From a virus (lineage: Duplodnaviria; Heunggongvirae; Uroviricota; Caudoviricetes), in IMG/VR virus record IMGVR_UViG_2563367001_000002: 16,129 nt of DNA. One strand, given 5' to 3'. Numbering within the stretch: the stretch's first letter is position 1; the number at the start of each line of letters is the position of its first letter. Made by a program: the position numbers and the translations under genes. Positions 4,315 through 15,426 of this stretch are shown one piece after another. The notes beneath the pieces are model-generated. The model was given only the letters and a program-made list of their open reading frames with translations, did not search any database and had not been told where the DNA came from.

Positions 4315-7300
4315 ATGGGTAAAGGCAGCAGTAAGGGGCATACCCCGCGCGAAGCGAAGGACAACCTGAAATCATCCCAGATGCTGAGCGTGATAGACGC
4401 CATCAGTGAAGGGCCGATTGAAGGTCCGGTGGACGGATTAAAAAGTGTGCTGCTGAACAGTACGCCAGTGCTGGACAGTGAGGGGAATACCAATATCTCC
4501 GGTGTCACGGTGGTTTTCCGGGCAGGTGAGCAGGAGCAGACACCGCCGGAGGGATTTGAATCCTCCGGCTCCGAGACGGTGCTGGGTACGGAAGTGAAGT
4601 ACGACACGCCGATTACCCGGACCATCACGTCTGCAAACATCGACCGTCTGCGCTTTACCTTCGGTGTGCAGGCACTGGTGGAAACCACCTCAAAGGGGGA
4701 CAGGAATCCATCGGAAGTCCGCCTGCTGGTTCAGATACAACGTAACGGTGGCTGGGTGACGGAAAAAGACATCACCATTAAGGGTAAAACCACCTCGCAG
4801 TATCTGGCCTCAGTGGTGGTGGATAACCTGCCGCCGCGCCCGTTTAATATCCGGATGCGCAGGATGACGCCGGACAGCACCACAGACCAGCTGCAGAACA
4901 AAACGCTCTGGTCGTCATACACCGAAATCATCGATGTGAAACAGTGCTACCCGAACACGGCACTGGTCGGCGTGCAGGTGGACTCGGAGCAGTTCGGCAG
5001 CCAGCAGGTGAGCCGTAATTATCATCTGCGCGGGCGTATTCTGCAGGTGCCGTCGAACTATAACCCGCAGACGCGGCAATACAGCGGTATCTGGGACGGG
5101 ACGTTTAAACCGGCATACAGCAACAACATGGCCTGGTGTCTGTGGGATATGCTGACCCATCCGCGCTACGGCATGGGGAAGCGTCTCGGTGCGGCGGATG
5201 TGGACAAATGGGCGCTGTATGTCATCGGCCAGAATTGCGACCAGTCGGTGCCGGATGGCTTTGGTGGCACGGAGCCGCGCATCACCTGTAATGCCTGGCT
5301 GACCACGCAGCGCAAGGCGTGGGATGTGCTCAGTGATTTCTGCTCGGCGATGCGCTGTATGCCGGTATGGAACGGGCAGACGCTGACGTTCGTGCAGGAC
5401 CGGCCATCGGATAAGGTGTGGACCTATAACCGTAGTAATGTGGTGATGCCGGATGATGGCGCGCCGTTCCGCTACAGCTTCAGCGCCCTGAAGGACCGTC
5501 ATAATGCCGTTGAGGTGAACTGGATTGACCCGAATAACGGCTGGGAGACGGCGACAGAGCTTGTGGAGGACACGCAGGCCATTGCCCGTTACGGTCGTAA
5601 CGTCACGAAGATGGATGCCTTTGGCTGTACCAGCCGGGGGCAGGCACACCGCGCCGGGCTGTGGCTGATTAAAACAGAACTGCTGGAAACGCAGACCGTG
5701 GATTTCAGCGTCGGCGCAGAAGGGCTTCGCCATGTACCGGGTGATGTTATTGAAATCTGCGATGATGACTATGCGGGGATCAGCATTGGCGGGCGCGTGC
5801 TGGCGGTGAACAGCCAGACCCGGACGCTGACGCTCGACCGTGAAATCACGCTGCCATCCTCCGGTACCACGCTGATAAGCCTGGTTGACGGGCAGGGGAG
5901 TCCGGTCAGCGTGGAGGTTCAGTCCGTCACCGACGGCGTGAAGGTGAAAGTGAGTCGGGTTCCTGACGGCGTTGCCGGATACAGCGTGTGGGGGCTGAAG
6001 CTGCCGACGCTGCGCCAGCGCCTGTTCCGCTGTGTGAGTATCCGTGAGAACGACGACGGCACGTATGCCATCACCGCCGTGCAGCATGTACCGGAAAAAG
6101 AGGCCATCGTGGATAACGGGGCGTACTTTGACGGCGACCAGAGCGGCACGGTGAATGGTGTCACGCCGCCAGCGGTGCAGCACCTGACCGCCGAAGTCAC
6201 CGCAGACAGCGGGGAATATCAGGTGCTGGCGCGCTGGGACACGCCGAAGGTGGTGAAGGGCGTGAGCTTCCTGCTCCGTCTGACCGTAACAGCGGATGAC
6301 GGCAGTGAGCGGCTGGTCAGCACGGCCCGGACGACGGAAACCACATACCGCTTCAGGCAACTGGCGCTGGGGAACTACAGGCTGACAGTCCGGGCGGTAA
6401 ATGCGTGGGGGCAGCAGGGCGATCCGGCGTCGGTATCGTTCCGGATTGCCGCACCGGCAGCACCGTCGAGGATTGAGCTGACGCCGGGCTATTTTCAGAT
6501 AACCGCCACGCCGCATCTTGCCGTTTATGACCCGACGGTACAGTTTGAGTTCTGGTTCTCGGAAAAGCGGATTACCGATATCAGGCAGGTTGAAACCACA
6601 GCCCGCTATCTTGGTACGGCGCTGTACTGGATAGCCGCCAGTATCAATATCAAACCGGGCCATGATTATTACTTTTATATCCGCAGTGTGAACACCGTTG
6701 GCAAATCGGCATTCGTGGAGGCCGTCGGTCGGGCGAGCGATGATGCGGAAGGTTACCTGGATTTTTTCAAAGGCAAGATAACCGAATCCCATCTCGGCAA
6801 GGAGCTGCTGGAAAAAGTCGAGCTGACGGAGGATAACGCCAGCAGACTGGAGGAGTTTTCGAAAGAGTGGAAGGACGCCAACGATAAGTGGAATGCCATG
6901 TGGGGCGTCAAAATTGAGCAGACCAAAGACGGCAAACATTATGTCGCGGGGCTTGGCCTCAGCATGGAGGACACGGAGGAAGGCAAACTGAGCCAGTTCC
7001 TGGTTGCCGCTAACCGTATCGCATTTATTGACCCGGCAAACGGGAATGAAACGCCGATGTTTGTGGCGCAGGGCAATCAGATATTCATGAACGAAGTGTT
7101 CCTGAAATATCTGACGGCTCCCACCATTACCAGCGGCGGTAATCCTCCGGCATTTTCCCTGACACCGGACGGGCGGCTGACGGCGAAAAATGCCGATATC
7201 AGCGGTAACGTGAATGCGAACTCCGGGACGCTCAACAACGTCACGATTAACGAGAACTGCCGGGTTCTGGGAAAACTGTCCGCGAACCAGATTGAAGGCG

Positions 7301-7710
7301 ATCTCGTTAAAACAGTGGGCAAAGCTTTCCCCCGTGACTCCCGAGCACCGGAGCGGTGGCCATCAGGGACCATTACCGTCAGGGTTTATGACGATCAGCC
7401 GTTTGACCGGCAAATTGTTATTCCGGCGGTGGCATTCAGTGGCGCTAAGCATGAGAGAGAGCATACTGATATTTACTCCTCATGCCGTCTGATAGTGCGG
7501 AAAAACGGTGCTGAAATTTATAACCGTACCGCGCTGGATAATACGCTGATTTACAGTGGCGTTATTGATATGCCTGCCGGTCACGGTCACATGACACTGG
7601 AGTTTTCGGTGTCAGCATGGCTGGTAAATGGCTGGTATCCCACAGCAAGTATCAGCGATTTGCTGGTTGTTGTGATGAAGAAAGCCACTGCAGGCATCAC
7701 GATTAGCTGA
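4315..7710 (+). CDS. J: Host specificity protein J (tail tip / central fibre, lambda gpJ-like), 1131 aa
   Basis: 1131-aa ORF (lambda J is 1132 aa) beginning [20 protein letters not shown]... Long collinear similarity to lambda J as I recall it. The last ~150 aa differ from lambda (receptor-binding region). SD-like GGAG upstream. Confidence 0.92.
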
Positions 7711-7729
7711 ATTTTATAACCCAGATACG

Positions 7730-7753
7730 GGCACCAGAAATGGTGCCTTTTTT
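7730..7753 (+). terminator. Rho-independent terminator downstream of J
   Basis: GGCACCA-gaaa-TGGTGCC (7-bp perfect stem, GNRA-type tetraloop) immediately followed by TTTTTT; 20 nt after the J stop. Confidence 0.8.
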
Positions 7754-7777: not shown

Positions 7778-8377
7778 ATGCGTAAATTATGTGCTGTTAT
7801 TCTGTCCGCAGTAGTCTGGCTGGTTGCCGCTGGTACGCCAGCGAGCGCAGCAGAGCATCAGTCCACACTAAGCGCCGGGTATCTTCAGACCCATACTGAT
7901 ATGCCAGGCAGTGATGACCTGAAGGGCATTAACGTGAAATACCGTTATGAATTTACGGACACGCTGGGGCTGGTGACGTCATTCAGTTATGCCAATGCCA
8001 AAGATGAGCAAAGAACGCATTACAGCGATACCCGCTGGCATGAAGATTCAGTGCGTAACCGCTGGTTCAGCATGATGGCGGGGCCATCTGTACGCGTGAA
8101 TGAATGGTTCAGTGCTTATGCGATGGCAGGTGTGGCTTACAGCCGTGTTTCGACGTTCTCCGGGGATTATCTCCGCGTAACTGACAACAAGGGGAAAACG
8201 CACGATGTGCTGACCGGAAGTGATGACGATCGCCACAGCAACACGTCTCTGGCGTGGGGAGCTGGCGTGCAGTTTAACCCGACCGAATCCGTGGCCATTG
8301 ATATTGCTTATGAAGGCTCCGGCAGTGGCGACTGGCGCACTGACGGTTTCATCGTGGGTGTCGGTTATAAGTTCTGA
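7778..8377 (+). CDS. lom: Lom outer membrane protein (Ail/Lom/PagC family beta-barrel), 199 aa
   Basis: Signal peptide (MRKLCAVILSAVVWLVAAGTPASA), alternating aromatic beta-strand pattern, C-terminal ...GVGYKF. Position right after J as in lambda. Own SD (GAGAGG) and flanking terminators. Confidence 0.9.
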   Translation: MRKLCAVILSAVVWLVAAGTPASAAEHQSTLSAGYLQTHTDMPGSDDLKGINVKYRYEFTDTLGLVTSFSYANAKDEQRTHYSDTRWHEDSVRNRWFSMMAGPSVRVNEWFSAYAMAGVAYSRVSTFSGDYLRVTDNKGKTHDVLTGSDDDRHSNTSLAWGAGVQFNPTESVAIDIAYEGSGSGDWRTDGFIVGVGYKF

Positions 8378-8403: not shown

Positions 8404-8431
8404 AGCCCGCCGGTTCAGGCGGGCTTTTTTG
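8404..8431 (+). terminator. Rho-independent terminator downstream of lom
   Basis: AGCCCGCC-ggttca-GGCGGGCT (8-bp stem) followed by TTTTTT; 27 nt after the lom stop. Confidence 0.8.
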
Positions 8432-8441
8432 TGGAGTGGAT

Positions 8442-10820
8442 ATGGCAGCAGTAAAAATCTCAGGTGTGCTGAAAGATGGTGCGGGAAAACCAATACAGAA
8501 CTGCACTATTCAACTGAAGGCAAAGCGTAACAGCACCACGGTACTGGTGAACACGGTGGCTTCTGAAAATCCGGATGAAGCCGGACGTTACAGCATGGAT
8601 GTTGAGTATGGCCAGTACAGCGTCACCCTGCTGGTTGAAGGTTTTCCGCCTTCACATGCCGGGACCATTACCGTCTATGAAGGCTCCAGACCAGGTACGC
8701 TGAATGATTTTCTCGGTGCCATGACGGAAGATGATGTCATGCCGGAGGCATTGCGTCGTTTTGAGGAAATGGTGGAAGAAGCGGCACGCAACGCTGAAGC
8801 CGCCTCTCAGAGCGCAGCGGCGGCAAAGAAATCCGAAACTGCAGCGGCATCATCGAAGAACGCGGCGAAAACCTCAGAAACGAATGCAGCTAATAGTGCA
8901 CAGGCGGCAGCGACCTCAAAGACTGCATCGGCAAACTCCGCGACAGCAGCCAAAAAATCAGAAACCAACGCGAAAAATAGCGAGACAGCCGCAAAGACGA
9001 GCGAAACCAACGCAAAGTCCAGCCAGACGGCAGCGAAAACCAGCGAAACGAATGCCAAAGCCAGTGAAACTGCGGCAAAAAACAGCCAGGTTGCAGCAGC
9101 CCAAATCGAGAGCGCGGCAGCCGGTTCTGCGACTTCAGCAGCTGGATCAGCAACTGCTGCGGCTAACAGCCAGAAAGCTGCGAAGACGAGTGAAACTAAC
9201 GCAAAGTTCAGCCAGACGGCAGCGAAGACCAGCGAAACGAATGCCAAAGCCAGCGAAACTGCGGCGAAAAACAGTCAGGATGCAGCAGCCCAAAGCGAGA
9301 GTGCTGCAGCTGGTTCTGCAAGCGCGGCGGCTGCTTCTGCCACTGCATCAGCCAACAGTCAAAAAGCAGCAAAAACCAGTGAAACCAATGCAAAGACAAG
9401 CGAGACTGCAGCGGCGAACTCGGCGAAAGCATCGGCAGCAAGCCAGACAGCAGCTAAAGCAAGTGAAGACGCAGCCAGAGAGTATGCAAGTCAGGCAGCA
9501 GAGCCGTATAAATATGTCTTACAGCCGCTGCCTGATGTGTGGATACCATTTAACGATTCGCTGGATATGATTACGGGCTTTTCGCCATCATATAAAAAAA
9601 TTGTTATTGGTGACGATGAAATAACGATGCCTGGCGACAAGATTGTTAAGTTTAAACGTGCATCGAAAGCAACCTATATTAACAAATCTGGTGTGCTGAC
9701 AGAGGCTGCCATTGACGAGCCACGATTTGAACGTGATGGCCTGCTTATTGAGGGGCAAAGAACAAACTACATGCTCAATTCGGAAAGCCCTGCAAGTTGG
9801 GGGCGATCATCAAATATGGATGTGCCCGAAACAGGGACGGATAATTTTGGTTTTACCTATGGAAAGTTTGTCTGCAACGATTCTCTGATTGGGCAAACCT
9901 CAGCCATTAATATGGCATCAATTGCTGCAACAAAGTCAGTTGATGTCTCAGGCGATAATAAACACGTGACAACCTCATGTCGTTTTAAAACAGAACTGCA
10001 GGTAAGGTTGCGTATCCGGTTTGATAAATATGACGGTAGCACAACAACTTTTCTTGGTGATGCGTATATTGATACACAAACGCTTGAAATTAATATGACA
10101 GGCGGTGCTGCCTCAAGAATTACAGCGAGAGTCAGAAAGGACGAAGCTACCGGATGGATTTTTGCAGAGGCAACAATTCAGGCAATTGATGGGGAGTTAA
10201 AAATAGGCTCTCAGATACAGTATTCTCCTGGGCAGGGTGGGGCAACAGTATCTGGTGACTATATTTATCTTGCCACCCCACAAGTAGAGAATGGGCCGTG
10301 TGTATCATCATTTATTATTTCAGGAGGCAGCGCAACGACAAGAGCCAGTGATTTGGTTAGTATCCCCACCAGAAATAATCTTTATAAGTTACCATTTACT
10401 TTTTTACTTGAGATTCATAAAAACTGGGATATTGCACCAAACGCCGCACCCCGCGTGTGGGATATAGCAGCAGCCAATACCGGGCAATCAGCAATTGCAG
10501 CAATCAACAGAGGTAGTGGTAAGTTATATATGAGTCTGTCAAACCCTTCAGGCTCGTATGTTAATAGCGCAGCGACAGATGTATTTGCAGAGAAAACCAC
10601 ATTTGGATGTATTGCAAAAGCTGATGGTCACTTTCATGTGGTGACAAATGGTAAAGCGGTTAATGAAGTTTATTGTGAATATAATGGCGTGACCGCTGAT
10701 AAAAATATCCGATTTGGAGGGCAGACGAATACTGGAGAACGACATCTGTTTGGCCATATTCGCAATTTCCGCATATGGCATAAAGAATTAAATGACAGGC
10801 AATTAAAAGAGGTCGTATGA
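8442..10820 (+). CDS. stf: Side tail fibre protein (Stf-like N-terminus, Ala/Ser/Thr-rich repeat shaft, LamG/ConA-like C-terminal domain)
   Basis: N-terminus MAVKISGVLKDGAGKPIQNCTIQLKAKRNSTT... matches the lambda Stf N-terminus as I recall it. I chose the ATG at 8442 with GGAG 5-8 nt upstream; the ORF track's 8436 is a GTG two codons earlier. The central part has KTSETNAK-type repeats. The C-terminus ends ...IRFGGQTNTGERHLFGHIRNFRIWHKELNDRQLKEVV, the typical end of a LamG (concanavalin-like lectin) domain. Confidence 0.8.
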   Translation: MAAVKISGVLKDGAGKPIQNCTIQLKAKRNSTTVLVNTVASENPDEAGRYSMDVEYGQYSVTLLVEGFPPSHAGTITVYEGSRPGTLNDFLGAMTEDDVMPEALRRFEEMVEEAARNAEAASQSAAAAKKSETAAASSKNAAKTSETNAANSAQAAATSKTASANSATAAKKSETNAKNSETAAKTSETNAKSSQTAAKTSETNAKASETAAKNSQVAAAQIESAAAGSATSAAGSATAAANSQKAAKTSETNAKFSQTAAKTSETNAKASETAAKNSQDAAAQSESAAAGSASAAAASATASANSQKAAKTSETNAKTSETAAANSAKASAASQTAAKASEDAAREYASQAAEPYKYVLQPLPDVWIPFNDSLDMITGFSPSYKKIVIGDDEITMPGDKIVKFKRASKATYINKSGVLTEAAIDEPRFERDGLLIEGQRTNYMLNSESPASWGRSSNMDVPETGTDNFGFTYGKFVCNDSLIGQTSAINMASIAATKSVDVSGDNKHVTTSCRFKTELQVRLRIRFDKYDGSTTTFLGDAYIDTQTLEINMTGGAASRITARVRKDEATGWIFAEATIQAIDGELKIGSQIQYSPGQGGATVSGDYIYLATPQVENGPCVSSFIISGGSATTRASDLVSIPTRNNLYKLPFTFLLEIHKNWDIAPNAAPRVWDIAAANTGQSAIAAINRGSGKLYMSLSNPSGSYVNSAATDVFAEKTTFGCIAKADGHFHVVTNGKAVNEVYCEYNGVTADKNIRFGGQTNTGERHLFGHIRNFRIWHKELNDRQLKEVV
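8991..9413 (+). repeat. In-frame 189-bp (63-aa) tandem repeat inside stf, about 2.2 copies, roughly 90% identical
   Basis: Unit A 8991-9179 (gcaaagacgagcgaaaccaacgcaaag...) recurs as unit B 9180-9368 (gcgaagacgagtgaaactaacgcaaag...), with a partial third copy to about 9413. Protein-level repeat ...AKTSETNAK(S/F)SQTAAKTSETNAKASETAAKNSQ...ANSQKA. Confidence 0.85.
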
Positions 10821-11095
10821 AAGATTTAACTTTGAAGTTTCATGACAAACTGCAGTTTAAGGCCTTCCTGTCATCTCTTGGCTGGGCGGAAGATGAAGAC
10901 CTCCAGAATAAACTGTTAGTTGATGAAATTGGTTTCACCTACACAGAAACAGGGGTAACAGAAGAGGGAGAACCTGTCTGTATCCGGAATGATGGTTATT
11001 TTGTCAACATTCGCATTCTTGATGACTTGTTTGATGTTTCTGTATTCTCTGATTATGTCGTGGAGCTGGAAACACCGCTTCGGGAATGGAGCTGA
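10817..11095 (+). CDS. Hypothetical acidic protein, 92 aa, translationally coupled to stf
   Basis: ATG overlaps the stf stop (ATGA, 10817-10820). Good SD (AAGAGG) 6 nt upstream. No TM segment, net acidic. I recognise no family. About 41% GC. Confidence 0.55.
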   Translation: MKDLTLKFHDKLQFKAFLSSLGWAEDEDLQNKLLVDEIGFTYTETGVTEEGEPVCIRNDGYFVNIRILDDLFDVSVFSDYVVELETPLREWS

Positions 11096-11107: not shown

Positions 11108-11401
11108 ATGGATATAAGCCCCTTACTTCATGCACTTTGTGCTGTGGCTGCGCAGATACTGGTTGGTCTTTTTACCGGAAACTGGGCTTACGGAGCGATA
11201 GCCGGTTGTACGTTCTTCATTGCGCGTGAACATACCCAGGCAGAATATCGCTGGATTGAAATGTTCGGGCATGGCAAGCGAATGAATATGCCGTGGTGGG
11301 GCGGTTTTGATCCGCGAGCTTGGGATGTGGCAAGCCTGATGGATTTTGCTGTGCCGGTGGTGGCGTGTCTGCTGGTCTGGCTGTTGGTTAATCGTGGGTG
11401 A
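11108..11401 (+). CDS. Hypothetical small membrane protein, 97 aa, two predicted TM helices
   Basis: Strong SD (AAGGAGG) 5-6 nt before the ATG. Hydrophobic stretches LLHALCAVAAQILVGLFTGNWAYGAIAGCTFFI and FAVPVVACLLVWLLV. Family not recognised. Confidence 0.55.
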   Translation: MDISPLLHALCAVAAQILVGLFTGNWAYGAIAGCTFFIAREHTQAEYRWIEMFGHGKRMNMPWWGGFDPRAWDVASLMDFAVPVVACLLVWLLVNRG

Positions 11402-11554: not shown

Positions 11555-11604
11555 CCGCAGCACGTCTTAAGCAAGAACGTGCTGCGGTTGGATGCTATTT
11601 TTTC
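11555..11604. terminator. Hairpin between the convergent Tfa remnant and methyltransferase gene (candidate bidirectional terminator)
   Basis: Perfect 11-bp stem CCGCAGCACGT / ACGTGCTGCGG (11555-11565 and 11577-11587) with an 11-nt loop; a T-run (TATTTTTT) lies 9 nt downstream on the + strand. No U-tract on the minus-strand side. Confidence 0.45.
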
Positions 11605-12263
11605 CCTGAAGCGGAAAACATTACTACAGTACCTTGAACCTTGGTTTTAACATTCTCGAAATGCTCTGAGAGTATATGTGTTAAGCCTTCTTCGGAATCT
11701 TTTGTGTTTGAAAAGATGCCTTTCTGATTGTAAATGCGCATCAGTTTTTGACCGAAGCTATTGTGCACAACGCCGTCACCAAGAATTGTGGCTCCGTATA
11801 GAGTTCCATCGTCAGTTAAGGCCTGCGCCGCATTGCGTATTACACAGCTTTTTGTAGATATATTTCCAGGCAGGCAGTGAAGAAGGTAAAACATGGAAAT
11901 GGAATCAAATTGACCATGTAACGCCGCGGGATAAGGATCAAAAACATCATGGCTAATTTTATGTTTAATTTTTGATTCCCCAGCCCTTGTAGATGCCGCG
12001 TTCAGGCTAGCTTCGTTCAAATCCATTAAAGATATCAGACTACTCTCAGGTACGTGAGTAAGGTAAAACCCAGTTCCAACACCAATATCCAGATGGTTGT
12101 TACCTAAATGTTCCAGAAAGTGTGGAAGAAGGTGTTCCTTTGTAGGACATCCCCATGCAAGCCGATTTGATACTCCCAAAACCCACCAGTCATAAAGCTT
12201 TAGGGTAAGTGGTGTGTAAATTTTAGCCCCATCATCTGTGTTTTTTTTCATTAATTTCACCAT
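11595..12263 (-). CDS. ybcY: Class I SAM-dependent methyltransferase (ybcY-like), 222 aa
   Basis: Motif I LDIGVGTG (GxGxG), acidic residue in LMDLNE about 20 aa later, motif II-like FDSISMFYLLHCLP. Sits between two Tfa remnants exactly like ybcY in the K-12 DLP12 tfaD-ybcY-tfaX arrangement; the symbol is assigned from that context. A second in-frame ATG at codon 5 (CDS 11595..12251) has a better SD (GGTGA). Low GC. Confidence 0.7.
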   Translation of the reverse strand: MVKLMKKNTDDGAKIYTPLTLKLYDWWVLGVSNRLAWGCPTKEHLLPHFLEHLGNNHLDIGVGTGFYLTHVPESSLISLMDLNEASLNAASTRAGESKIKHKISHDVFDPYPAALHGQFDSISMFYLLHCLPGNISTKSCVIRNAAQALTDDGTLYGATILGDGVVHNSFGQKLMRIYNQKGIFSNTKDSEEGLTHILSEHFENVKTKVQGTVVMFSASGKK

Positions 12264-12319
12264 GTTATAGTTTTATTTGTGAATTAAATCAATTATGGCG
12301 ATGAATTACAAGGGGTTAA

Positions 12320-12618
12320 ATGCTGCCGCAGCATAGCGATATTGAAATAGCCTGGTATGCTTCGATACAGCAGGAGCCGAATGGCTGGAAGACCGTCACC
12401 ACACAGTTCTACATCCAGGAATTCAGTGAGTATATTGCGCCACTGCAGGATGCTGGGAAATCGCAACGGAGGAAGAAAGATCGTTGCTGGAGGCATGGAA
12501 TAAATATCGGGTATTGTTGAATCGTGTTGATACATCAGTAGCTCTGGGTATGAAGCTGTTTGTAACTCATGTTACAGTAACAACCATTACTATCTCGAAG
12601 GTGCAAAATGTATATTGA
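12320..12618 (+). pseudogene. tfa: Tail fibre assembly protein pseudogene (tfaX-like), frameshifted
   Basis: One frame gives ...[10 protein letters not shown] and, after a shift of frame near 12455, ...[30 protein letters not shown]... These are both parts of the conserved Tfa C-terminal domain, split across frames. The C-terminus diverges from the Tfa consensus after VDTS. Confidence 0.6.
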
Positions 12619-12746
12619 TTTGATATTTTATAAATTTACTTCGAATCTGGCACGTCAACTTTTGATTAAAGTAATATCAGTTTTCGGCGAAAAAAGGACC
12701 GTGTATATGAGACGATTTCATACAAGAATAACAAAAATATGAATAT

Positions 12747-12780
12747 GCTCCCAATGCAATATATGTTTTGCATTGGGAGC
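12747..12780 (-). terminator. Rho-independent terminator for the minus-strand peptidase gene
   Basis: Perfect 12-bp stem GCTCCCAATGCA / TGCATTGGGAGC with a 10-nt loop, 22 nt downstream of the peptidase stop. On the minus-strand transcript it is followed by AUAUUCAUAUUUUUGUUAUU. Confidence 0.65.
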
Positions 12781-12801
12781 AAATAGCGGAATATTTTGAA
12801 A

Positions 12802-14286
12802 TTATTGTATTTCTGCTTCAGAATTTCCTGGGCAGTATATATTTTCTATTTTTTGTGGAGTGATCAGGTGATGTACAACTGCTTTATCTACACATAAATT
12901 AACTCCGGTGAGAGCTAATGTATGCCCATCACCATTTATTGTTAGTAACGGGCTGGAAAATTTCTCTGCCATCTTACGGGCATTAATCCAGGGCGTTGTT
13001 GGGTCGTATTTGTGTGCTACAAACAGTAAACCAGAGGGCAGAACAGTATTTTTCAGGCGAGTTTTGTTCAGGTCGCTATGTATTGGCCATAATTCACAAA
13101 AATCAGGTGAATCGGAACGTCCATTGTCAAAGTTAATGGCCGGGAAGGCATTCGCAAGAGCGTCTTTTCGGGATTTTCGCTCTTCTGGTGTTAATTGCTC
13201 ATCCCCCTGATCTACACAGAGGATTACCCCCGAAGCATCGCTTGACTCTTCTGAGGCTATCGGAGCACTGAGCGCAGTTTCAATTTCATTACTGACAATC
13301 CCCTGAGAGAACTGGCGTATGGCAGTTGCAAGGGTTGGCCATGATGAACGCCATAGCAGAAGGTCTGTTGTTAATGATATGAGTTCATCTGAAGATATAT
13401 TTTCTCCCTTACTGTCTAATAAAGGTTTGTGATGTAATTTTGATAATAGCTCATGGAACTGAGTTATTGCCTTATCTCTGTCTGAAGAAAGCGGGCAACT
13501 TTTTGTACGCGCACACCAGGATGCAAAGCGATCAAACGTTTCCTGATAACTCTGTGCCTGTTTGAGTTGCCATGTGAAGTTGTCCTCCAGGTCATCGATA
13601 TCGACGACTCCATCAAGAACGATAGATCTTACGTTGTAGGGAAAACGTTCTGCATATAAGGCTGCAATTTGAGTTCCATACGAATACGCCACGGCTGTCA
13701 GTTGTTTATCCCCCAAGGCTTGCCTAATACGATCAATATCGTATACAGCCTCGTTAGAGCCGATATGGCGAATGACTTCGGCTCCGGTATTATGGATACA
13801 GGCATTAATTTTATTTAATACTTGTTGCTTTTCGGTTATGTTTTCCTGAGTCTCTGTATCTGATTGCCGGCAGTTTATTGTCGGAGTGGACTGTCCGACG
13901 CCTCGAGGATCAAATCCAATAATATCCCATGACTCACGAAGATTTGTGACTGGCCAGTCAAAGTTAATATAAGGATTTATGCCTGGTAACCCGGGACCAC
14001 CACTTATTATCAGGATACTTCCTTTATGCTTGCTTTTTGCCGGCAATTTTGTCAACGCTAGTTTGACTTGTGATTTTTTTTCATAAGAAGCATCTCCGCC
14101 TGTGTCTGTATATTTTAATGGAACAGACAAATAACCACATAGTAAGTCAGGAGACGGTTTTTCCTCACCAAACCAGTGGTTGAATTGACTGGCCATACAG
14201 GATTGCCACTGTATCTGCTGGGCAGATACGGTTACTGGTAGAAGTAACGTTAAAACAACTTTGAAATGAGTAATTATTTTTCGCAT
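12802..14286 (-). CDS. Signal-peptide-bearing (exported) alpha/beta-hydrolase peptidase, S33 / TAP-like (tripeptidyl or prolyl aminopeptidase family), 494 aa
   Basis: N-terminal signal peptide (MRKIITHFKVVLTLLLPVTVSA|QQ). GGPG oxyanion motif (ILIISGGPGLPG), GFDPRGVGQS, nucleophile elbow AYSYGT (GxSYG-type), C-terminal Asp/His region (INGDGHTLAL). Low GC. Confidence 0.75.
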   Translation of the reverse strand: MRKIITHFKVVLTLLLPVTVSAQQIQWQSCMASQFNHWFGEEKPSPDLLCGYLSVPLKYTDTGGDASYEKKSQVKLALTKLPAKSKHKGSILIISGGPGLPGINPYINFDWPVTNLRESWDIIGFDPRGVGQSTPTINCRQSDTETQENITEKQQVLNKINACIHNTGAEVIRHIGSNEAVYDIDRIRQALGDKQLTAVAYSYGTQIAALYAERFPYNVRSIVLDGVVDIDDLEDNFTWQLKQAQSYQETFDRFASWCARTKSCPLSSDRDKAITQFHELLSKLHHKPLLDSKGENISSDELISLTTDLLLWRSSWPTLATAIRQFSQGIVSNEIETALSAPIASEESSDASGVILCVDQGDEQLTPEERKSRKDALANAFPAINFDNGRSDSPDFCELWPIHSDLNKTRLKNTVLPSGLLFVAHKYDPTTPWINARKMAEKFSSPLLTINGDGHTLALTGVNLCVDKAVVHHLITPQKIENIYCPGNSEAEIQ

Positions 14287-14424
14287 TGTGTCTCTGAATA
14301 TCGGAATAAAGATAAGATTTGAATATATTGAGGTCTTGTGTTGCGGTAAGAGATTACACGTTATGACATAGGTTAAATGCTTACAAAATTAGTGGATATT
14401 GTCTACTTGTAACTGTAAACAAAT

Positions 14425-14453
14425 TCCCCGGGGTTATACAATACCACCGGGGA
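14425..14453 (-). terminator. Candidate terminator for ompT
   Basis: TCCCCGG ... CCGGGGA inverted repeat (7-bp stem, 15-nt loop) about 20 nt downstream of the ompT stop, followed on the minus-strand transcript by AUUUGUUUAC. Confidence 0.5.
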
Positions 14454-14472
14454 GAAAATCTGGTTAACTTCG

Positions 14473-15426
14473 TTAAAAGGTGTACTTAAGACCAGCAGTA
14501 GTGATGAAGTTATAGTTTTCTATGCCTGCACCATTTTTGCTGTAGTCTGAAGTGTTATCATTGTGATCATAAAGTGAAGTATTACCTTTTTTATTCGTAA
14601 CCCGATTCCATGCGCCTTCAACATAAACTTTTGCGTTAGGTGTTACGTAATAACCTGCATTGACTGCAACAGAATAGTAATTTTGGTCTTTGACTTTACT
14701 GCGATAAGTGATTCTTTTTCCTGGGTCATAGTGCTCATCGTTATCAGATGCTTCCACCCAGCCGCTGTATTTAAATGTGCCACCTAGCTCAAAATCTTCA
14801 TAACGATAACTTCCAGTCAAGCCAATGTAGGGCATTTTAAAACGTTGTTTGTAGCCGATTGCTCTTTCTCCATTCGGGAAGGAGCCGATATCATCTCTGA
14901 ATCCCTCCTCAGAACTGTAGATATAGGAACCACCTCTGGCTGTAAAGCTATAACGGCTTTCCTGATATCCGGCCATGAGTCCCAGGCGGTAATTGGGTTC
15001 GTTGAGGAGCCAGCCTTTGATATTCAGATCAAATTCGTTGGCATAATTGAGTTGTGTATCAGGGTGCCTACTTTCATCTGTCCAGGTTCCGGGGTTACTG
15101 GAATCCATCCAGTCCTGATCGACCATATTGCCACCTCGGCTGCCGAGAGTAGTCCAGCCCGCAGCCCCAATAGATATCTGGGGCATCAAATCCCAATTAA
15201 TTGCACCTTTAATAATTGCAGCGTTATTGAATTTCCAGTCAAGTTGACTGACTTTTCGGCCTCCTTCTTCGGCTAGATAAACACGCTCTTTTGTTTTTCC
15301 GCTCAGAGTTCCAAGACTAATGTCCGCATTTATGTTGTCAGGAGTAAACGATAAAGTCTCGGTAGAAGCAAAAGAGCTGATCGCAATAGGGGTTGTCAGG
15401 ACTATTCCCAGAAGTTTCGCCCGCAT
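14473..15426 (-). CDS. ompT: Outer membrane protease OmpT (omptin, peptidase family A26), 317 aa
   Basis: 317-aa ORF with signal peptide MRAKLLGIVLTTPIAISSFA and C-terminal ...TTAGLKYTF. Essentially collinear with E. coli K-12 OmpT as I recall it. GGAG SD 8 nt upstream of the ATG. Confidence 0.93.
   Translation of the reverse strand: MRAKLLGIVLTTPIAISSFASTETLSFTPDNINADISLGTLSGKTKERVYLAEEGGRKVSQLDWKFNNAAIIKGAINWDLMPQISIGAAGWTTLGSRGGNMVDQDWMDSSNPGTWTDESRHPDTQLNYANEFDLNIKGWLLNEPNYRLGLMAGYQESRYSFTARGGSYIYSSEEGFRDDIGSFPNGERAIGYKQRFKMPYIGLTGSYRYEDFELGGTFKYSGWVEASDNDEHYDPGKRITYRSKVKDQNYYSVAVNAGYYVTPNAKVYVEGAWNRVTNKKGNTSLYDHNDNTSDYSKNGAGIENYNFITTAGLKYTF

Follow-up and report, generated by a model that had tools for sequence, protein, structure and literature searches.

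A nine-heptad tandem repeat in the side tail fibre rod of a lambdoid prophage, with rare copy-number alleles that probably arise by unequal exchange

Several kinds of trimeric fibre carry a repetitive shaft in which the number of repeats sets the length of the structure independently of the head that it bears. Familiar cases are the pseudo-repeats of the adenovirus fibre shaft, the repeats of T4 gp34 and gp37, and the stalks of trimeric autotransporter adhesins. An example of the last of these is the repeat stalk of the adhesin BadA (PMC9602544). Among the side tail fibres (Stf) of lambdoid phages, one of the closest described systems is that of Ur-lambda (PDB 9e7m and 9mgh), in which cryo-EM and cryo-ET place Stf residues 102-393 in a proximal trimeric coiled coil (PMC12617516). 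A literature search found no description of the 63-residue repeat unit that is the subject of this report, or of variation in its copy number.

The window analysed here, a stretch of 16,129 nucleotides, covers the tail end of an E. coli lambdoid prophage, as judged from its list of open reading frames (ORFs) and their Pfam matches, and near-identical loci are found in many E. coli chromosomes. On the plus strand, a tape-measure gene is followed by small tail genes, by J (4315-7710, with six GpJ-family Pfam domains), by an Ail/Lom gene (7778-8377), by the fibre gene and finally by two small ORFs, and the opposite strand of the window carries genes for a methyltransferase and an alpha/beta hydrolase as well as ompT. 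The terminator-like hairpin upstream of the fibre gene has a stem of 8 pairs, 7 of them G-C, followed by TTTTTGTGGA. The fibre ORF opens with GTG at 8436, and a GGAG at 8433-8436 precedes an ATG at 8442. This ATG is the likely start of the gene; homologues of the protein begin MAVKISG or MAAVKISG. Long ORFs also cross the repeat in alternative frames and on the opposite strand; these were treated as by-products of periodic, GC-rich codons.

Two features of a lambda-type Stf are evident at the proximal end of the system. First, a collar domain is present, with a match to PF08400 ('prophage tail fibre N-terminal') of 223.9 bits (E 7e-67) and a match of fibre residues 5-97 to the solved collar of Ur-lambda Stf (PDB 9e7m residues 2-94; E 7e-49). 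Second, J and lom precede the fibre gene, in the same order as in lambda. Together with the heptad rod described below, these observations bear out the proposal of the earlier note that the repeat belongs to a fibre shaft, and phrog_1419 ('tail protein') covers the protein from end to end. The distal features of a lambda-type Stf are absent, however: neither a Tfa-type chaperone gene downstream nor a gp37-like tip was found, and the tip matches NF048003 ('phage head spike fiber domain', aa 437-637; 51.4 bits, cut-off 36) rather than the lambda tip. As a result, we consider that the window fibre shares the proximal half of Stf but not the distal half. A match to Laminin_G_3 (ConA-like) at aa 668-789 reached 25.5 bits, which is below the Pfam cut-off of 27.6, and is not claimed. 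The 92-aa ORF belongs to phrog_1361 (E 3e-42), and in all related loci that were examined it stands directly 3' of the fibre gene. Neither this ORF nor the 97-aa ORF downstream has a Pfam or NCBIfam match, and both fall in PHROGs of unknown function.

Table 1. Features of the fibre locus, in coordinates of the 16,129-nucleotide window
Feature	Position (residues)	Strand	Basis or remarks
Terminator-like hairpin and T-run	8404..8432	+	Separates lom from the fibre gene
Side tail fibre gene (Stf family)	8436..10820	+	794-aa ORF; PF08400, phrog_1419
N-terminal collar domain	8448..8837 (aa 5-134)	+	PF08400; attaches the fibre to the tail (PMC12617516)
Rod of 35 consecutive heptads	8769..9503 (aa 112-356)	+	Consensus S-E-T-A-A-K-x; predicted trimeric alpha-helical coiled coil
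Repeat unit 1 (U1)	8979..9167 (aa 182-244)	+	63 aa, 9 heptads
Near-identical core of U1	9009..9103	+	Partner in U2 is 9198-9292
Repeat unit 2 (U2)	9168..9356 (aa 245-307)	+	63 aa, 9 heptads
Partial third unit, head only	9357..9413	+	44/57 nt identical to the heads of U1 and U2
C-terminal region, presumed receptor-binding part	9504..10817 (aa 357-794)	+	NF048003 at aa 437-637
92-aa ORF	10817..11095	+	ATG overlaps the fibre stop codon (ATGA)

The rod that joins the collar to the C-terminal region consists of heptads that are unbroken and without any shift of register, with Ser at position 1 and Ala at position 5 in 31 of 34 cases each, and its Fourier spectrum peaks at 7.0 and 3.5 residues. Directly after the collar it aligns with lambda orf-401 (285 aa aligned, 60% identical), and its place in the protein corresponds to the start of the region assigned to the proximal coiled coil in lambda Stf. 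Apparent similarities between the rod and the RNA polymerase II CTD, DnaX and SMC were set aside as compositional only. From the sequence we infer that the rod folds as a trimeric alpha-helical coiled coil. The candidate core residues would be Ser at position 1 and Ala or Asn at position 4, all of them small or polar and none of them Leu, Ile or Val; trimeric fibrous coiled coils with polar cores are known. An AF2 monomer model of low confidence (mean pLDDT 40), built with 14 close homologues and read for secondary structure only, is helical at residues 98-228 and 238-354, with a break in the helix and dips in pLDDT at the Gly-containing tails of the repeat units. A canonical coiled coil rises 0.148 nm per residue, and if the rod conforms to this geometry, one repeat unit would account for approximately 9 nm of a rod of approximately 36 nm. 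Because the rod is a single uninterrupted heptad array, the gain or loss of a whole unit would keep the heptad register.

Within this rod, Tandem Repeats Finder reports a single array of period 189 at 8979-9413, with 2.3 copies, 82% matches and 0 indels. Both full units begin on codon boundaries of the fibre ORF, and each is built from six heptads of the SET(A/N)AKx type followed by three that are rich in Ala, Gly and Ser. The earlier note had described this region as a recent, near-perfect in-frame tandem duplication of 189 bp, with two full units and a partial third that are about 90% identical and encode 63 aa each. Its count of the units and their length is accurate, and past the partial third unit the likeness to the repeat is lost (52/132 nt). 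The duplication is likewise real and in frame, but it is far from perfect. The two units agree at 159/189 nt (84%) and 54/63 aa (86%), their longest exact in-register run is 26 nt (9039-9064), and the divergence is uneven: the core matches at 89/95 positions (94%), against 24/30 for the head and 46/64 (72%) for the tail, so that only the 95-nt core attains the similarity that had been ascribed to the whole. Nor is the duplication recent. Codon differences between the units comprise 17 synonymous and 9 non-synonymous changes, and the 17 synonymous differences indicate that the window's own duplication is old.

One could argue that there has been no duplication at all, and that the similarity over 189 nt is a by-product of heptad periodicity and the biased composition of the rod. 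Periods of 21 and 42 nt are indeed detected throughout the rod, in agreement with the shorter upstream periodicities noticed earlier, and offsets at multiples of 21 give 45-50% identity. Nonetheless, when 8750-9500 is compared with itself, a check proposed before the analysis, offset 189 is the best. Moreover, among 1000 shuffles that preserve the heptads by keeping codons within their heptad positions, the best match over 189 nt averaged 111.9 +/- 3.4 and never exceeded 126, against the 159 observed. The core is 94% identical with synonymous sites included, and the Gly-containing unit tails recur solely at a spacing of 63 aa. We regard the by-product explanation as refuted, and its remaining probability as negligible.

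Homologous fibres form an allelic series of 728, 791 and 854 aa with one, two and three units, respectively. Compared with the common two-unit allele (P0012, 791 aa, representing a cluster of 4554 sequences), the three-unit proteins P0001 and P0002 (854 aa) and the one-unit protein L002 (728 aa) agree at 178-179 of 179 positions before the array and at 430 of 430 after it. Homologous prophages thus vary in copy number and keep an unchanged tip, as had been suggested, and, as in a VNTR, the polymorphism is found among otherwise identical alleles with one, two or three units.

The composition of the variant arrays is informative about their origin. In all three of the three-unit alleles, which come from draft assemblies (GCA_016595135.1, GCA_036902485.1 and GCA_016108505.1), the extra unit is a chimera with the head of U2 and the body of U1. 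The middle unit of L001 is of unit-2 type at positions 4, 8, 12, 15, 24 and 30 and of unit-1 type thereafter, which puts its breakpoint within unit positions 31-98, whereas the middle units of L006 and L007 are of unit-2 type at positions 4 and 8 only. In each allele, private variants of its own first unit are present in the middle unit as well. These different junctions and private first-unit variants point either to two or more separate gains of recent date or to a single gain that gene conversion then modified. Single-unit alleles occur in two forms. One retains the whole of unit 1 (L002, from a complete circular chromosome), and the other joins a unit-1 head to a unit-2 tail. The latter is carried by phage IdasGreatGrand (an isolate with a complete genome; 731 aa) and also by P0123 and 9 further protein clusters, and this form is the reciprocal outcome of the exchange by which a three-unit allele arises.

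We considered whether the array might truly be fixed at two units, with the variants representing repeat collapse or expansion during assembly. The draft origin of the three-unit alleles would fit this explanation, as would the frequent location of the fibre gene at contig ends and the many database entries that are marked 'partial'. However, one-unit alleles are present in a complete circular chromosome and in the complete genome of an isolated phage, and the three-unit alleles differ from one another in sequence and breakpoint and are all in frame. Furthermore, 189-bp units that are only 84% identical can be resolved by ordinary reads, and assemblers are more prone to collapse repeats than to expand them. 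On this evidence, an origin of the variants in assembly error is highly improbable.

Chimeric middle units and reciprocal single units are precisely what unequal homologous exchange between near-identical cores predicts. Our main reading, to which we assign a probability of roughly 80%, is that the repeat is a nine-heptad rod module between collar and tip, and that recurrent unequal exchange or slippage between units changes the length of the fibre. The earlier suggestion that the in-frame repeat expands and contracts, and thereby varies fibre length, appears sound in light of the chimeric extra units and the reciprocal single unit, with the addition that such change is rare.

In the mechanism we propose, the 63-residue module sits in the proximal rod, between the tail-docking collar and the presumed receptor-binding part at the C terminus, and the two units of the window descend from an old duplication whose heads and tails have diverged. 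The uneven divergence (94-100% identity in the core, approximately 70% in the tails) suggests that the cores are homogenised by gene conversion, and it is probably within these near-identical cores that unequal exchange takes place. From time to time, misaligned homologous exchange between units, or slippage, would produce a three-unit allele whose middle unit is chimeric; a one-unit allele would come from the reciprocal event, and gain and loss would both spare the collar and the tip. Heteroduplex repair could account for the patchy junctions of L006 and L007, as could slippage. The agent might be RecA, a phage Rad52-type recombinase (PMC3945230) or replication slippage, and the sequence cannot separate these. 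The recombination substrate in the window is modest (84% identity and a 26-nt perfect run), and a run of that length is near the lower limit generally cited for exchange by RecA. In the P0012 lineage, the identical inter-unit stretch extends to 68 nt. Lambdoid phage recombinases are reported to recombine diverged sequences (PMC3945230).

The frequency of length change was estimated from proteins and from genomes, and all of the values are approximate, given that the match lists are limited by ranking and that the counts read row by row come from small samples. Among the 167 listed protein clusters that carry both flank motifs, 149 have the two-unit spacing, 9 are shorter by 63 aa and 3 are longer by 63 aa. 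Single clusters lie at -7, -14 and -28 aa, and lengths that are not heptad multiples are represented by one cluster at -12 aa and two at -16 aa; most other in-frame length differences are multiples of the heptad (-7, -14, -28 and -105 aa). The 120 closest protein clusters comprise 117 with two units and 3 with three (854 aa). Summary counts from DNA searches are blind to copy number because BLAST pieces are joined per place, and so a query consisting of the flanks alone was used instead. Applied to complete E. coli genomes taken as a spread sample, this query found two units at 11 of 11 array-carrying places, and at seven further places it found a rod that is 315 nt shorter. The sequenced phages listed with the unit array include seven with two units and one with a single unit, and many other listed phages have the rod that is shorter by 315 nt. 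Overall, the unit array is present in about 970-1080 of 5426 complete genomes, and a doubled unit searched against complete genomes gave no match above 97.7%. A synthetic four-unit query returned mostly partial proteins and missed the known 854-aa alleles because its word prefilter was saturated, and it sets no maximum for copy number.

We conclude that copy-number variation is rare, and that the array is an ordinary, slowly varying module and not a hypervariable switch. A contingency locus would behave differently, acting as a fast and reversible length switch that leaves mixed fibre lengths within one population of lysogens. Independent gains and losses have been seen, and the activity on diverged sequences reported for lambdoid recombinases in the study cited above (PMC3945230) would be helpful to such a switch. 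In opposition to this possibility, the unit identity of only 84% and the 17 synonymous differences indicate that the two-unit state has long persisted, and that state prevails in 149 of the 167 listed clusters, in 7 of 8 array-carrying phages and in all 11 sampled array-carrying genome places. The combination of high unit identity and frequent change by which VNTR or contingency loci are recognised was not found here (84%, 26-nt exact run). It is very unlikely, then, that the array serves as a contingency locus.

Whether the rare variants matter to the phage is a separate question. They could well be real and functionally neutral, with the rod acting as a tolerant spacer whose copy number has no effect on adsorption or host range, and we put the chance of this at somewhat less than even. 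Neutrality would fit the observation that the variants are rare singletons, the spread of rod lengths across the family (from about 30 aa to 350 aa) and the phage 21 fibre, whose tip is the same although its rod is 105 aa shorter and lacks the 63-aa unit. Also, laboratory lambda does not need its side fibres (PMC12617516), and so a variant that is tolerated need not be functional. On the other hand, the side fibres of Ur-lambda contact the cell before the central fibre does (PMC12617516), which means that reach could matter. The more ambitious proposal is that the 63-residue module is a length-tuning cassette, in which gain or loss of a unit adapts side-fibre reach to the thickness of the host O-antigen or capsule. 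We hold this to be unlikely. If it were true, the natural alleles with one, two or three units and the same tip would be adaptive variants and not neutral accidents. This natural series, with the same collar and tip and with one, two or three rod modules, could be used to probe adsorption as a function of side-fibre length, and could guide the choice of rod length in lambda-based delivery particles that carry chimeric side fibres (PMC11338833). Beyond these uses, the array is a routine case of a fibrous protein whose length changes in frame through repeats.

The shafts of adenovirus, T4 and BadA differ from the window rod in fold and are unrelated to it in sequence, and the likeness is one of analogy only. 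The relationship to Ur-lambda Stf is closer, in that the collar domain and the gene site after J and lom are held in common (PDB 9e7m/9mgh; PMC12617516), and in that both lambda Stf and the window fibre continue, directly after the collar, into a heptad rod that carries AAKTSETNA motifs and has a high content of Ala, Ser, Thr and Lys. However, lambda Stf is without the 63-aa unit, which is found in 3 of 150 listed representatives of the family. The distal part of lambda Stf, with its hinge, gp37-like distal domain, OmpC-binding tip and Tfa chaperone, is replaced in the window by a domain resembling head spike fibres and a weak ConA-like match, followed by the 92-aa ORF.

Nearer relatives differ from the window in more restricted ways. 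P0012 and its 728-aa and 854-aa variants have the collar in common with the window protein and are 86-87% identical to it overall, and P0012 also has two units. In contrast, the last approximately 150 aa of the P0012-type fibres differ from those of the window fibre (23-28% identity at aa 682-760), and P0012-type loci have an extra fibre gene, encoding a 346-aa S74-peptidase protein, that the window lacks. The side tail fibre of phage 21 (OL657228, 686 aa) has the same collar and a C-terminal region of 431 aa that is nearly identical (400/431), whereas its rod is shorter by 15 heptads. Two small ORFs equal in length to those of the window follow the phage 21 fibre gene, and a terminator is annotated there at the position equivalent to the hairpin upstream of the window's fibre gene. 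Throughout the family, rods of very different length hold a constant heptad phase.

Comparison of the 794-residue fibre protein with other alleles shows that its tip is mosaic over window positions of about 10350-10817 (aa 640-794). Against alleles of the type common in E. coli prophages (P0012), identity of the protein is 95-100% as far as roughly aa 600, but only 23-28% over aa 682-760. Its match to the phage 21 fibre holds throughout, the mosaic tip region included. Loci of the P0012 type also carry, between their two small ORFs, an additional fibre gene coding for a 346-aa S74-peptidase protein; this gene is absent from the window.

The phage 21 fibre (L003 1498-3558) has the same collar and tip as the product of window 8436-10820, but its rod is shorter by 105 aa (15 heptads) and shows no relationship in its details. 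Exchange between fibres involves whole rod segments, beyond the 63-aa unit alone. Within the array, further alleles carry short in-frame deletions of 7, 14 and 28 aa; array variants that are not multiples of seven residues, if real, would shift the heptad register. In a low-confidence AF2 model, the Gly-containing unit tails (AAGSATSAAGSA and AAGSASAAAASA) each coincide with a helix break or a dip in confidence, and they might be softer joints of the rod.

A considerable fraction of the fibre protein copies in the database (entries P0271-P0390) are ‘partial’, cut at contig edges. The number of places matching the fibre gene in an E. coli genome has a median of 2 and reaches 13. The collar and rod sequence common to multiple copies appears to break short-read assemblies, and it provides homology for exchange among co-resident prophages.

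Features in and around the fibre gene (window coordinates)
Feature	Position	Strand	Remarks
Terminator-like hairpin	7729-7748		directly 3' of J
Terminator-like hairpin	8404-8432		between lom and fibre gene, directly 5' of the latter
Long ORF over repeat	8731-9570	+	other frame
Long ORF over repeat	8807-9247	-	
Long ORF over repeat	8890-9153	-	
Long ORF over repeat	9208-9441	-	
Gly-containing unit tail	about 9120-9146		aa 229-237; break/dip
Gly-containing unit tail	about 9294-9341		aa 287-302; break/dip
92-aa ORF	10817-11095		phrog_1361, PHROG label unknown function
97-aa ORF	11108-11401		phrog_1443; follows 92-aa ORF
SAM methyltransferase, TAP-like alpha/beta hydrolase, ompT	11595-15426	-	past fibre module
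Array-region length-variant proteins			P0331, P0332, P0343, P0334, P0121

Because terminator-like hairpins follow J and precede the fibre gene, expression of the latter would require late-operon antitermination, and lom would be a transcription unit of its own. The region past the fibre module looks like the remains of earlier prophages at the same site, since a near-identical genome (L009 14148-19446) has tail fibre assembly gene fragments, a DinI fragment and a broken integrase interspersed among the methyltransferase, hydrolase and ompT genes. The ORFs that cross the repeat in another frame or on the opposite strand are most likely by-products of periodic GC-rich codons; a comparable ORF, ‘orf206b’, is annotated opposite stf in the lambda record.

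At every locus inspected, fibre genes of the window's type are followed by the 92-aa and 97-aa ORF pair. The ATG of the first overlaps the fibre gene stop codon, and its product may be an assembly factor. The phage 21 counterpart of the second is annotated as a putative membrane protein. In lambda, the gene for the Tfa chaperone stands in place of this pair.
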